Below are positions 15,899 through 19,114 of a stretch of DNA of 64,000 nt, piece after piece. The notes beneath the pieces are model-generated. The model did not search any database and was not told the origin of the DNA. It saw nothing but the letters and a program-made list of their open reading frames with translations. A program made the position numbers and the translations under genes. Location: contig CAMMHE010000002.1 in assembly GCA_946496575.1 (NCBI GenBank), positions 20,966 through 84,965 on the forward strand, written 5' to 3'. The stretch is from an uncultured Clostridium sp. GTDB lineage: Bacteria > Bacillota > Clostridia > TANB77 > CAG-508. Numbering within the stretch: the first letter of the stretch is position 1; the number at the start of each line of letters is the position of its first letter.

Positions 15899-16448
15899 CT
15901 TTTTTTAGAATAATTCTTATTTGTCTAAATATGATTATTGCAATAGGTATAAATATTATAAAATAAAATATATAGATATTTTTTATTAGTTGTCCTATAA
16001 AACTTAAAGTTTTTACTTTATATATTATTTTTCCATATATTTGACTTGCATCAATTTCTGGATCTTGTTCAATATTTGCTATACCTTTTGTTATAAATTT
16101 ATAGTCTCCATTTTCATCTTGTTTTTTATCAATTACTTGGTGGGTAATTACTTTTCCTTTAAAACTACCTGTTTCACCTCTATATACAACATCATCTCCT
16201 ATTTTAATATCATTTTCATCTATTTCTTTTGATATTAAAATATCTCCTACTTTATATTTAGGCTCCATACTTCCTGTTGCTACAGTAAATAATCTATAAC
16301 CACCTATAGAAATTGAATTGTTTGATACTCTTTGCAAGATTACCACTATTAGCATAAATATAACTATAATAAATAATAGCGTATATAAAATATTTCCAAT
16401 CAGTTTTAATACTTTATTATTTTTTATCCTATTTAACGTTTCTTTCAT
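15852..16448 (-). CDS. Signal peptidase I, SipW/archaeal-ER type
   Basis: ATGSMEPKY, VITHQVI, ITKGIANIEQD, N- and C-terminal TMs. Its start overlaps the stop of the upstream gene as TAATG. Confidence 0.8.
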   Translation of the reverse strand: MKETLNRIKNNKVLKLIGNILYTLLFIIVIFMLIVVILQRVSNNSISIGGYRLFTVATGSMEPKYKVGDILISKEIDENDIKIGDDVVYRGETGSFKGKVITHQVIDKKQDENGDYKFITKGIANIEQDPEIDASQIYGKIIYKVKTLSFIGQLIKNIYIFYFIIFIPIAIIIFRQIRIILKKDDKEDEDGDDKKNDE

Positions 16449-17575
16449 TATTGTTCTTCCTTTTCTACTTTGTTTAAATATTTGTCAATATGTGTTCTAA
16501 ATATTTTTTGTATTTCTTTAATTGCTTCTACTTTTTTATATTTTATGATTTCATATTTATTTGCAATTAATTTATTTAAATCTTCTTCTGTTAAATCTTG
16601 ATCCATGTCTACCAGACTATTTACCATTTGCTCTAATATTGCTTGTTTTATTTCTTGTTTTGTACCTTCTGTTTCTGCTTCATCTTGGTCTAAAGTTTTT
16701 AAAATTAAATATTGTAACATGAATGTCTCATCAAAAAGCTGTTTTCTTTCTCCTTGTTCTATATAATCTTGGTTTTCTTCTATATTTTTTGTTTTATCAT
16801 CAAAATTATCTCTTAAATAATTCCATAACTTCATAGCATATTGAAAATTTACATTTTTTAATATTACATTGGTTTTCTTTATTGGTTCCCTAACTAAACT
16901 TATATGCTTTTTGTCTATTATTTTATATACTTCTGATGAAGTTAAATCTGTTATTCTTTGTTCTATATCTTTTATACTATTTAATATTTCATTTGTTTCT
17001 TGTTCTGTATCTTTTTGGCTATCACTTAAAGAAGAACTTAAACTTAAATTTATTTCCACTTTTTCTTTTTCTGTTTCTGTTAGTGCTTTATAGTCTAACT
17101 TTTTATCATTTTTATTTTGTTTGTTTACGTCTTCTTCCAATGTTCTTTTTCTTCTATCAACAAATAATTTCATATTTTGAATTAATGTATAAATCAGTCT
17201 ATTTTCATATGTATCATAACTTTCTTCTTTATTTATGTTTAAAATTTTAGATGGCCTAACATCTCCAGTTTTTTTGTCTATACTTTGTATAAAATTGGTA
17301 TTTTTGGATAAATGTTTTATACTATCTACAGTTATTTTTCTTGCAAGTTCTATTTTTACTATTTCTTCTTCATTTATAATAAAACGATTTGGAGACCTTA
17401 ATATATTATCAATATATGGTATTGTTTCCTCCATTTTTTCTATCCATTCTATATCTTTTATATCTCTTTTTGTTTCTACTTTTATTCTTAAATTAGAATC
17501 TACACCATCTATAAATTTCTGTAGTTTTTCCTTATTTGTATTTTCATAAATATCAAATATTTCTAATTTTCTCAT
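16448..17575 (-). CDS. McrC N-terminal-like (DUF2357-like) protein with an acidic coiled coil and no recognisable nuclease domain
   Basis: SPNRFIINEEEIVKIELARKITVDSIKHL...ESYDTYENRLIYTLIQNM resembles the DTPENRF region of McrC/DUF2357 proteins. The rest is a D/E/K-rich coil. I see no PD-(D/E)xK-like D...(D/E)xK core. RBS AAGAGGA 18 nt after the McrB-like stop. Confidence 0.4.
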   Translation of the reverse strand: MRKLEIFDIYENTNKEKLQKFIDGVDSNLRIKVETKRDIKDIEWIEKMEETIPYIDNILRSPNRFIINEEEIVKIELARKITVDSIKHLSKNTNFIQSIDKKTGDVRPSKILNINKEESYDTYENRLIYTLIQNMKLFVDRRKRTLEEDVNKQNKNDKKLDYKALTETEKEKVEINLSLSSSLSDSQKDTEQETNEILNSIKDIEQRITDLTSSEVYKIIDKKHISLVREPIKKTNVILKNVNFQYAMKLWNYLRDNFDDKTKNIEENQDYIEQGERKQLFDETFMLQYLILKTLDQDEAETEGTKQEIKQAILEQMVNSLVDMDQDLTEEDLNKLIANKYEIIKYKKVEAIKEIQKIFRTHIDKYLNKVEKEEQ

Positions 17576-17593
17576 AATTTTCCTCTTATTATA

Positions 17594-19114
17594 TTAAGTT
17601 AATTTTTTTAATCTTAATAAATATTCTATACATTCTTTCATTTTGTTTTTTCCAAATGTTTCATCCAAAAATTCTACATATGGATCTATTTCTTCTCTTA
17701 TATATGCAACATTTAATTGTTCGAATTTTCTAAGTATTTTTTTAGCAATAAAATAGTCAACACCTGCTATTTCATCTCCACCACAAGCAACAAAAACTGG
17801 TACAAATTTTTTCATGTGTGAAACAATACGGTTACCAAATGCTATTCTAAAGTGTCTTATTACATAATCATCCATTAATTCTATTTTATCTAATGTTTCT
17901 TGTGATACCTGGTGTTCTTGCATTGCTGTTTCAAATAAATTATTTAGGTATGAATAATTTATATCTTGTGCATCTACTTCTTTTGGTTTAAAAGCCTTAC
18001 CTTTATCATTAATATCTATCGGCATAGCTCTATCATATACCTTATCTGTTACCATAAATGTAGAGTCATCATTGTTTATTGTTCCTATATACCACATATT
18101 AGCAGGTATTTTTAATTTTCCACCTTTAATATGTTTTGGATCTGTTTTCCAACTATTTGGAACAAGCTCTATTATCCATTCATTTTTATTAGGCATTTCT
18201 AGTATTGATAACATTTCTGCAAAATAGTATTCAACACGAGAAATATTCATTTCGTCCAATATTATGGTATAAACATCATCTGTATATCCAGCAACATACA
18301 TTTCTTTTAATACATCTGTTTCATTGAATTTTTTAGTAAATTCATTGAAATATCCAAATAATTCTGTTCTATCTCTCCATGATGGTTGTACTGATGCAAC
18401 ACAAGAATCATGTTTTAAAAATTTTCCCCATGCATAAGCAAGCGATGTTTTACCAGTACCAGATATACCTTGCAATATAACTAATTTTGTTGATGCTAAT
18501 GCTGATATAAATAATCTCATCATATCTATCGTATAGTATAATTTTAATTTAGATGCTGCAAAATTCCTAAAATTTTCACATAATTCTGGTAAAGTAAAAC
18601 TATTTCCATAATCTTTTATTTTATAGTCTGAATATTCTTCATCTATTGTTTCAAGTTTTGCAAATCTAGTTTCTCCTAAATTTTTCTTATCTGATTCCTC
18701 TTCTAACTCTATTTCATTTGATTCTCCAGGTTTTAGCCCCAATTGAGATACTTTCATTGCTAATATATCTTCTTTTTCTTTCATTAATGATGCAACTTTT
18801 CCATTTAATGTTGCTACTTCTTCTAATAATTCATCCTGGTTTATTGCTTGTTTTCTAAATTTTAAATATTTTCTTATTAATAAATAAATTAACAAAAAAA
18901 CTAGCCCTATAAAAATAACTACACTCAATATTGATATTCCTACTAATATCCATTCAGGTAATAATAAGTCATTTTTGTATGATTCTAGAATTGCTTGATA
19001 TGACTTTATATCAAAAGTTTGCTTTATTCCATTTGCTATTCCCATTAAAATCGTTAATAGCCCTGAAAAGAATTGTGATAAAAATTCATATAAAAATCTT
19101 GTAAATGTTTCCAT
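17594..19114 (-). CDS. Membrane-anchored McrB-family AAA+ (AAA_5) NTPase
   Basis: N-terminal hydrophobic segment plus a clear TM (WILVGISILSVVIFIGLVFLLIYLLI), a coiled coil, then Walker A LQGISGTGKTS, Walker B IILDEMNISRVEYYFAEML and GTINNDDST (compare McrB GTMNTADRS). Confidence 0.7.
   Translation of the reverse strand: METFTRFLYEFLSQFFSGLLTILMGIANGIKQTFDIKSYQAILESYKNDLLLPEWILVGISILSVVIFIGLVFLLIYLLIRKYLKFRKQAINQDELLEEVATLNGKVASLMKEKEDILAMKVSQLGLKPGESNEIELEEESDKKNLGETRFAKLETIDEEYSDYKIKDYGNSFTLPELCENFRNFAASKLKLYYTIDMMRLFISALASTKLVILQGISGTGKTSLAYAWGKFLKHDSCVASVQPSWRDRTELFGYFNEFTKKFNETDVLKEMYVAGYTDDVYTIILDEMNISRVEYYFAEMLSILEMPNKNEWIIELVPNSWKTDPKHIKGGKLKIPANMWYIGTINNDDSTFMVTDKVYDRAMPIDINDKGKAFKPKEVDAQDINYSYLNNLFETAMQEHQVSQETLDKIELMDDYVIRHFRIAFGNRIVSHMKKFVPVFVACGGDEIAGVDYFIAKKILRKFEQLNVAYIREEIDPYVEFLDETFGKNKMKECIEYLLRLKKLT

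Follow-up and report, generated by a model that had tools for sequence, protein, structure and literature searches.

A membrane-anchored McrBC-type protein pair encoded among SipW-type signal peptidases in an uncultured Clostridium, with a probable role outside DNA restriction

Introduction

McrBC is the textbook GTP-dependent restriction enzyme, and the finding of its relatives in the membrane, among signal peptidases, raises the question of what such a motor would be doing there. The case considered here is a stretch of 64,000 nucleotides (the window) from an uncultured Clostridium sp. (assembly GCA_946496575.1, contig CAMMHE010000002.1, positions 20,966 to 84,965 of the forward strand), in which two adjacent minus-strand genes encode a 506-residue McrB-like AAA+ nucleoside triphosphatase (NTPase) and a 375-residue McrC-like protein, next to the gene of a 198-residue SipW-type signal peptidase I paralog. 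All three open reading frames (ORFs) had been located in an earlier interpretation made from the sequence alone (the sequence-only reading), and their coordinates and strand were recovered exactly. That reading offered two explanations for the pair, a restriction-type motor co-opted for a non-DNA role or a novel defence module nested in the operon; the co-opted motor is now favoured over the nested defence module on the basis of the membrane anchor, the missing nuclease and the link to SipW. The probability that the pair has a non-DNA role, as an McrBC-derived module in the maturation or assembly of exported proteins, is put here at about 0.6.

The class to which the pair very probably belongs already has a name. 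Bell et al. (eLife 2024; PMC11090510) termed this architecture, together with its signal-peptidase association, CoCoPALM, in a description that comprises one paragraph and a figure supplement; because of this earlier naming, the novelty implied by the sequence-only reading was overstated, and the inference which that reading preferred agrees with the published one. A literature search for CoCoPALM returned nothing beyond that article and its preprint. No feature of the window pair contradicts membership: it shares with CoCoPALM an NxD-type McrB-like GTPase with an N-terminal anchor made of a transmembrane (TM) segment plus helix, a DUF2357 McrC homolog with a modelled helical tail, and neighbours of the signal peptidase family, and it differs in that the FtsB homology which Bell et al. 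give for the anchor (PMC11090510) was not reproduced.

A membrane-tethered McrB-type NTPase

The affinity of the 506-residue protein for McrB is visible in both sequence and structure comparisons. Its sole match among PDB sequences is E. coli McrB (E=0.011 as a single sequence), which is also the only protein matched by the family profile (5e-5), and in these searches the Walker A, Walker B and signature regions of the two proteins align, with GISGTGKT standing opposite GPPGVGKT of E. coli McrB. Among the 23 homologs aligned for the conservation analysis (29-65% identity), 22 match AAA_5, the Pfam family that contains McrB, with a best E of 2.5e-7. When an AlphaFold2 model built on these 23 diverse homologs (mean predicted local distance difference test score, pLDDT, 83; predicted TM-score, pTM, 0.68) was submitted to Foldseek, E. 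coli McrB (6ut6_D) ranked third with the highest target TM-score of the top hits, the other top matches being MCM, NorQ and dynein.

The McrB motifs pointed out in the sequence-only reading are all present and fall on invariant columns of the alignment. Invariant residues include G216, G219, G221 and K222 of Walker A, D287 of Walker B (followed by the nearly invariant E288), N290, R293, E295, R362 and R429. In the signature, N347, D349, S351 and T352 are invariant and position 350 is D, E or Q. By its sequence this signature is the NxD variant that marks a major branch of the McrB family, defined in section 7 of PMC11090510 by a shortened motif that is usually followed by D or E.

The N-terminal part of the protein carries a single strong TM segment (hydropathy scan, Kyte-Doolittle mean over 19 residues), and a membrane-spanning N-terminus is found in every aligned homolog. 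RKYLKFRK lies directly after the TM segment, so the NTPase domain should be cytoplasmic. Residues 7-25 are hydrophobic and sub-threshold by hand count, and a second membrane-embedded helix is possible there. In the AlphaFold2 model, helices 2-33 and 36-46 precede one continuous helix from 52 to 124, which combines the membrane span with about 44 cytoplasmic residues of stalk, the latter showing a heptad-like pattern at roughly residues 96-118. A disordered linker (125-147), the alpha/beta AAA+ core (about 150-370) and a helical lid (387-505) follow. No DNA-binding domain was found within residues 1-147 by Pfam, NCBIfam or inspection of the model, and the TM helix bears out the membrane anchor proposed earlier. 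Judged from its sequence, the protein is thus a membrane-tethered McrB-type NTPase with intact catalytic motifs and a cytoplasmic NTPase domain.

The anchor has the CoCoPALM architecture, in that the TM helix runs on as a helix to residue 124. Its homology to FtsB was tried and not reproduced: Pfam DivIC matches one of the 23 family members, at E=0.012 only, and comparison with E. coli FtsB by hhalign is not significant (probability 0.2%).

A McrC-like partner with the activating domain and without the nuclease

The call of a DUF2357/McrC-N-like region in the 375-residue partner holds: the match covers residues 54-182 and lies above the gathering score of Pfam (Table 1). Nothing besides DUF2357 was recognised in the protein by Pfam, NCBIfam, PADLOC or PDB sequence searches, and PF09823 is the only domain in its database homologs, among the matches listed.

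Conservation across 16 homologs (28-45% identity) is concentrated in two blocks. Invariant in the first are W44, L89, K110, L112, E118, Y123, E124, N125, R126 and L131; this block includes a loop at 106-117 (PSKILNINKEE, with the invariant K110) and the YENR motif at 123-126. The second block has the invariant residues P231, T235, N236, L239, K240, F244, A247, L250 and W251. Both are also kept in the long forms of the protein found in Clostridia. No residue past 252 is conserved in the 16-homolog alignment, and conserved acidic or lysine residues after that point were not found, the long Clostridia forms included.

The AlphaFold2 model of the partner (pLDDT 70, pTM 0.47) contains long strands at 26-39, 155-167, 172-184 and 263-273, of which 155-184 forms a beta-hairpin, and helices at 187-212 and 276-374, the final 100 residues being entirely helical. 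Two loops, 89-99 and 106-117, have pLDDT values below 50; as modelled, they would fit a segment that becomes ordered only once inserted in the partner ring. No alpha/beta nuclease core was found in the model. Foldseek gave no match in the PDB at E<=0.001, neither a nuclease nor McrC, a negative that carries little weight for a model of elongated shape and moderate confidence; matches to TolC and actin-capping protein (E>=0.014) were discarded as noise. The family profile did not match McrC among PDB sequences.

Conservation, Pfam, PADLOC, the model and the fold search agree, within the reach of these tools, that a PD-(D/E)xK nuclease is missing family-wide, as had been noticed for the window protein. 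Beyond DUF2357 there is more than the acidic coiled coil of the earlier description, which has to be corrected: a second conserved block (226-252) and predicted beta-structure (hairpin 155-184, strand 263-273) are also present. On sequence grounds, the partner retains the McrB-activating DUF2357 domain and has no nuclease.

Clostridia-type homologs of the partner are longer, 680-820 residues, and their additional approximately 350 residues consist of charged repeats of the KEKAKEKERIAKEKA type (KEKA), with no nuclease (L049, L052, L053, L056, L060, L064, L066, L069, L072, L074, L075, L078 and L079).

Coupling to signal peptidases and exported proteins

Within the window the genes of the pair are tightly spaced with their neighbours, and the pair is translationally coupled to SipW-type genes, to the gene of a cytoplasmic protein and to exported-protein genes. 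The stop codon of the McrC-like gene overlaps the start of the SipW-type gene (caaTAATGaaa), the McrC-like gene itself starts 18 nt past the McrB-like stop, behind AAGAGGA, and the McrB-like gene starts 11 nt past the stop of the gene for a 332-residue protein, here called g11, behind GAGG. The overlap, the 11-nt gap and the SipW identity of the downstream product had all been read correctly from the sequence.

Relatives of the McrB-like protein are numerous. Matches to it number more than 8000 at the level of 90%-identity clusters; among 50%-identity representatives, 8255 match at E<=0.001 and 767 at <=1e-30, and when species were scanned with one genome each, at least 584 of them proved to carry a relative. 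Gene neighbourhoods were counted in the best 80 species loci of these, which come from metagenome-assembled genomes of gut and rumen origin with the labels Tenericutes, Mollicutes, Bacilli, Erysipelotrichaceae and Clostridia. Among the 80, the closest relative with a name is that of Clostridium sp. CAG:567 (77% identity), and the window's own proteins are present in NCBI without a name. Some more distant relatives have multiple TM segments (P0250, P0212 and P0180) and lie on contigs too short for context.

The association seen in the window is maintained in these loci. By tblastn, the McrB-like gene is immediately followed by the McrC-like gene in 78 of 80, that is, wherever the contig continues. 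SipW-type genes are found in 73 loci. In 70, such a gene directly borders the pair on the same strand, at a distance of no more than 300 bp; one follows the McrC-like gene in 51 loci, and one precedes the McrB-like gene in 30. The g11 homolog directly precedes the McrB-like gene in 58 loci, and genes of the 330-, 259-, 198- and 211-residue exported proteins are syntenic with the pair in 41-68; the distal genes for the 521-, 1266- and 1314-residue proteins are so in 10-32. Across related loci the McrB-like protein keeps 51-80% identity, versus 30-57% for the McrC-like protein, and is better conserved than its neighbours. The coupling of the pair to SipW-type peptidases, g11 and exported proteins is therefore conserved at the gene level across deep divergence.

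The link also takes the form of gene fusion. In 12 of the 80 loci a SipW domain, a charged linker and g11 form a single protein encoded immediately upstream of the McrB-like gene (L035:7748-9916, L043:7875-9998, L044:8049-10001, L046:7731-10001, L050:7749-10004, plus seven more); in the four that were scanned, the SipW domain matches TIGR02228 with E between 1e-16 and 1e-20. Together with the adjacency in 70 loci, these fusions extend across species the connection between the pair and SipW that had been proposed from the window. The SipW paralogs of the window possess a second hydrophobic segment past the catalytic domain, which, given the topology of SipW, should place a fused g11 domain on the cytoplasmic face. 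A complementary pattern is seen in loci with the long, repeat-bearing McrC-like form, which have no g11 and carry SipW directly upstream instead.

SipW-type genes occur five times in the window cluster as paralogs (Table 1), only two of which keep all catalytic residues. In the most divergent of them, 22771-23313, the paralog alignment places SDNEMVP where TGSMEP is expected and G in place of His, and this protein is probably inactive as judged from its sequence. It and the paralog without His, 1817-2389, look like non-catalytic proteins of the peptidase fold.

In seven of the 80 loci, a stretch of 10 kb around the pair is free of SipW-type genes; the triad of g11, McrB-like and McrC-like genes is kept in six of them, and just the pair in the remaining one. 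At one SipW-less locus (L068; 3625-7466 and 12621-19389), inspection by eye showed the triad to be followed by a gene for a 556-residue membrane protein with many DxDxDG-like Asp-rich repeats, with penicillin-binding-protein and MraY genes further downstream and a transposase-like gene and a group II intron reverse transcriptase gene a few kb upstream. Pairwise BLAST of the positional equivalents at this locus was not significant, and the g11 relation is visible at profile level only.

In a sub-lineage recovered from several samples, codon 254 of the McrB-like gene carries an insertion of one base (TTATT-TGG to TTATTCCGG), which splits the gene into ORFs of 256 and 235 residues and leaves the rest of the operon intact (L087:3001-4522, L088:3001-4522 and L089:2155-3676; the window equivalent lies at about 18350-18360). 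Unless it is a sequencing artefact, the change may represent a loss-of-function allele, or a split one, that arose naturally.

The exported proteins and the question of TasA

At least nine proteins of the cluster have an N-terminal signal anchor by hydropathy scan. None of the exported proteins matched a family in Pfam or NCBIfam or a PDB sequence. The 330-, 259- and 211-residue proteins are paralogs, since their profiles match the same ORFs in some loci.

Directly past the anchor, several of them share a consensus of [T/I]-[Y/F]-A followed by [W/K/V]-[F/Y]. The individual forms are TYA|WF, TFA|WF, IFA|KY, IYA|VF and ILA|KY, carried by the 330-, 211-, 198-, 208- and 202-residue proteins as a group. 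The pattern resembles the cleavage site of the TasA precursor, TWA|AF. The mature start of TasA, AFNDIK, was verified in PDB 8AUR.

The TasA-like neighbours mentioned in the sequence-only reading find no support beyond this style of signal peptide. TasA homology of the exported proteins was not detected: searches of Pfam, NCBIfam and PDB profiles gave no match, and a profile comparison of the 330-residue family with the TasA sequence of PDB 8AUR by hhalign gave a probability of 0.3%.

Comparison with known systems

Canonical McrBC (E. coli K-12; PDB 6HZ4, 6UT6) and the window pair have in common the order of Walker A, Walker B and sensor/signature motifs, a partner with the McrC N-terminal domain, and an arrangement as two adjacent genes in the same order. 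They differ in that a membrane anchor replaces the DNA-binding N-terminal domain in the McrB-like protein of the window, the signature reads NxD instead of NxxD, and the partner is devoid of a PD-(D/E)xK nuclease. Canonical McrBC also sits with restriction-modification genes, whereas the window pair sits among signal peptidases and exported proteins. With both the DNA-binding domain and the McrC nuclease of canonical restriction missing, the pair is unlikely to be a restriction system.

Closer relatives are the CoCoNuTs (CnuB/CnuC), the sister clade within the NxD branch, which according to Bell et al. have an NxD GTPase, helical or coiled-coil additions and McrC homologs that often have no active nuclease (PMC11090510). 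In contrast to the window pair, CoCoNuTs are cytoplasmic, with very long coiled coils, and always occur with HEPN or other nucleases and helicases; no HEPN, other nuclease or helicase gene was found in the cluster by Pfam, PADLOC or NCBIfam. This kinship probably explains why the PADLOC candidate profile PDC-M26A matches residues 191-314 of the McrB-like protein, within the AAA+ core, at E=6.9e-34 and over 125 of its 724 positions. The McrC-like partner has no PDC-M26 match in PADLOC.

The genomic setting recalls a different group of systems. In B. subtilis, tapA-sipW-tasA is a SipW-dependent matrix and fibre operon, and SipA/LepA of Streptococcus pyogenes are signal-peptidase-like factors of pilus assembly. 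The sipW-bsaA operon of C. perfringens (PMC11580942) is a further SipW-dependent operon of Bacillota. The window cluster resembles the SipW fibre operons in having dedicated SipW-type peptidase genes inside an operon of exported structural proteins, and its catalytically dead peptidase paralogs are another point of resemblance to this group of systems. It departs from the fibre operons in two respects: those operons have no cytoplasmic NTPase, and the exported proteins of the window show no detectable homology to TasA or to Pfam, NCBIfam or PDB families.

Proposed role and alternatives

In McrBC, the N-terminal domain of McrC inserts in the McrB hexamer and stimulates GTP hydrolysis (PMC11090510, where the McrBC structures of Niu et al. 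2020 and Nirwan et al. 2019 are summarised). By analogy, six McrB-like subunits would form a ring hung below the membrane on their stalk helices, and the McrC-like protein would plug this ring asymmetrically and switch on NTP hydrolysis. The invariant McrC-like loop around K110 is a candidate contact for D349 of the signature, as are R126 and K240. The stalks, the McrC-like tail and g11 could then relay energy, or the nucleotide state, to the membrane-embedded signal peptidases, among which the dead SipW paralogs may serve as holders, not cutters. Such a cycle would drive or gate the steps by which the signal-anchored exported paralogs are cleaved, released and assembled in order, and its end product would most likely be a surface fibre or layer. 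A bolder form of this proposal, which is speculative and given clearly less credence than the non-DNA role as such, is that CoCoPALM is a GTP-driven ring of restriction-enzyme descent, hung below the membrane, which a dedicated adaptor (g11, joined to SipW in some species) couples to both active and inactive signal-peptidase paralogs and which powers or times the release and polymerisation of the exported family; it would then be a new surface-assembly machine.

Several points weigh against a role in exported-protein maturation. Sec-exported proteins cleaved by signal peptidase I are not known to need a cytoplasmic NTPase. The seven SipW-less loci imply that the peptidase link is not absolute, and the frameshifted McrB-like gene implies that some strains, at least, can do without the function. 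The McrB-like protein of the window is itself sub-threshold in Pfam (AAA_5, E=0.14). Homology of the exported proteins to known pilins was not detected by sequence, as with TasA, and because of this the word fibre is a guess from the SipW association and the cleavage-site pattern.

Among the alternatives, the one that survives best is a checkpoint or quality-control switch, in which the tethered ring and its McrC-like activator would sense the state of the cytoplasm, or how many uncleaved signal-anchored precursors have built up, and would gate the peptidases or extract stalled precursors but not themselves power polymerisation. It draws on the same genomic-context evidence as a maturation role, on the catalytically dead SipW paralogs, and on the joining of g11 to SipW in some species, which is adaptor- or regulator-like; moreover, Bell et al. 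predict that the shortened NxD motif alters the rate of hydrolysis (PMC11090510). The present data fit this switch and the maturation module alike. Pfam, NCBIfam and PDB profile searches of the cytoplasmic components revealed no sensor domain, however, and such a switch is considered unlikely.

Membrane-anchored defence systems exist, and the pair could be a membrane-associated anti-phage or abortive-infection module of McrBC/CoCoNuT lineage nested in the exported-protein operon, its effector being membrane damage or an unrecognised nuclease. McrBC ancestry, the PDC-M26A match of the AAA+ core and membership in the NxD branch, whose CoCoNuTs are predicted defence systems (PMC11090510), speak for such a module, which is nevertheless quite improbable. 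In the pair and its neighbours, Pfam, NCBIfam and PADLOC searches revealed no nuclease, HEPN or other effector domain, and the defence profile recognises nothing in the McrC-like partner. SipW adjacency in 70 of 80 loci and the SipW-g11 fusions would be hard to obtain by chance nesting, and the McrB-like protein is the better conserved member of the pair and of its neighbourhood. The cluster is flanked by housekeeping genes (formate-tetrahydrofolate ligase, XseA, Fmt, ComM, penicillin-binding protein, UvrC and ClpC), among which mobile or defence genes were not found.

A cell-division or envelope-biogenesis factor, in which the divisome or the cell-wall synthesis machinery would acquire the NTPase by way of its FtsB-like anchor, is the least credible alternative: the anchor is called FtsB-homologous by Bell et al. 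(PMC11090510), a single homolog matches DivIC and one SipW-less triad lies near penicillin-binding-protein and MraY genes, but the comparison with FtsB was not significant, division genes were found neither in the window cluster nor in most loci, and the genes that consistently accompany the pair are those of signal peptidases and exported proteins.

Significance

A role in exported-protein maturation would apply to a large branch of McrBC, spread over hundreds of gut and rumen species, that has lost DNA recognition and cleavage, is membrane-bound and is tied to signal peptidases. If shown, it would clearly exemplify how a motor from defence can be taken over for cell-surface biogenesis. The surface-assembly version, if true, would place alongside type IV-pilus ATPases, sortases and chaperone-usher systems another way of making bacterial filaments, one used by uncultured low-GC gut Bacillota with an exported family that has no known relatives. 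The hosts are abundant among the uncultured gut Bacillota, and the window provides a compact and complete example of the named class.

Relative to the published CoCoPALM text, the present analysis adds the SipW-g11 fusions, the SipW-independent triad, the dead SipW paralogs, the KEKA-repeat tails of Clostridia, the complementarity between g11 and the long tail, the confinement of McrC-like conservation to two blocks, the failure to detect homology to TasA or FtsB, and the codon-254 insertion. Some of these are testable handles: the fusion predicts a physical link and the invariant McrC-like loop a ring contact, and the inactive peptidase paralogs and the natural frameshift allele can be used in the same way.

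Other features of the locus

The cluster extends over about 2.0-23.3 kb of the window, and its features are collected in Table 1. No terminator-like site was found on the minus strand between 6000 and 25000, and sites returned by the promoter and terminator scans were no commoner than in shuffled controls. The gene of the 198-residue exported protein runs against the minus-strand direction of the cluster; most related loci keep this inversion, and the cluster therefore comprises at least two transcription units.

Table 1. Features of the window (positions count from its first letter; aa, amino acids; strand and basis of assignment as available)
Feature	Position	Strand	Basis
McrB-like AAA+ NTPase, NxD branch, 506 aa	17594..19114	-	ORF, McrB match, AlphaFold2 model
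TM helix of McrB-like protein, residues 56-80	18875..18949	-	Kyte-Doolittle 3.2
Stalk helix of McrB-like protein, residues 81-124, putative short coiled coil	18743..18874	-	AlphaFold2 pLDDT 71-87
Walker A GISGTGKT of McrB-like protein, residues 216-223	18446..18469	-	Invariant columns
Signature N347-N-D349-D-S-T of McrB-like protein, shortened NxD form	18059..18076	-	Invariant columns
McrC-like protein, 375 aa, DUF2357 and helical tail, no nuclease	16448..17575	-	Pfam E=1.2e-11
McrC-like conserved block 1, residues 44-135	17171..17446	-	Invariant columns
McrC-like conserved block 2, residues 226-252, V-x-x-PIKKTNVILKNxNFQxAxxLW	16820..16900	-	Invariant columns
SipW-type signal peptidase I paralog (ER/archaeal-type), 198 aa	15852..16448	-	TIGR02228 E=1.6e-24; Ser and His present, GI replaces GD
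g11, cytoplasmic protein, 332 aa	19126..20124	-	No TM segment
SipW-type signal peptidase I, canonical Ser, His, GD	21653..22177	-	TIGR02228 E=5.2e-21, Peptidase_S24 E=8e-8
SipW-like paralog without Ser and His	22771..23313	-	Weak SipW-model matches, E=1.3e-7
SipW-type paralog, canonical Ser, His, GD	2352-2948	-	TIGR02228; with 1817-2389, E=1.3e-28 and 3.6e-11 for the two
SipW-type paralog without His	1817-2389	-	TIGR02228; with 2352-2948, E=1.3e-28 and 3.6e-11 for the two
Exported protein, 330 aa	12607-13599	-	Signal anchor
Exported protein, 259 aa	13767-14546	-	Signal anchor or TM segment
Exported protein, 198 aa, paralog of 22164-22790	14647-15243	+	Signal anchor or TM segment
Exported protein, 211 aa	15263-15898	-	Signal anchor or TM segment
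Exported protein, 310 aa	20141-21073	-	Signal anchor
Exported protein, 202 aa	21088-21696	-	Signal anchor
Exported protein, 208 aa	22164-22790	-	Signal anchor
Charged cytoplasmic protein, 521 aa, no family match	10793-12358	-	No TM segment
Giant protein, 1266 aa, no family match	7003-10803	-	Signal anchor
Giant protein, 1314 aa, no family match	2961-6905	-	ORF

No Pfam, NCBIfam or PADLOC family matched g11. The idea, formed by eye, that its C-terminus (GFKITIILDNSF...) is a degenerate EAL domain for cyclic di-GMP was unsupported by Pfam and NCBIfam, and the family profile searched against the PDB gave triosephosphate isomerase as its best match (E=0.042), with no support for EAL. A divergently transcribed protein of the cluster, of 306 residues, has neither a TM segment nor a family match.

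The ORF of the 1266-residue protein overlaps the gene of the 521-residue protein by 11 nt. Near its C-terminus this giant protein has Gly-rich repeats of the IYGGG/IYGAGAGG type, and it may be an adhesin-like or tip component. A second AAA_5-type gene of the window, at 36225-37814 on the minus strand, lies 17 kb away among housekeeping genes and encodes a ComM/Mg-chelatase-type AAA+ protein that matches AAA_5 and MCM and is unrelated to the pair.

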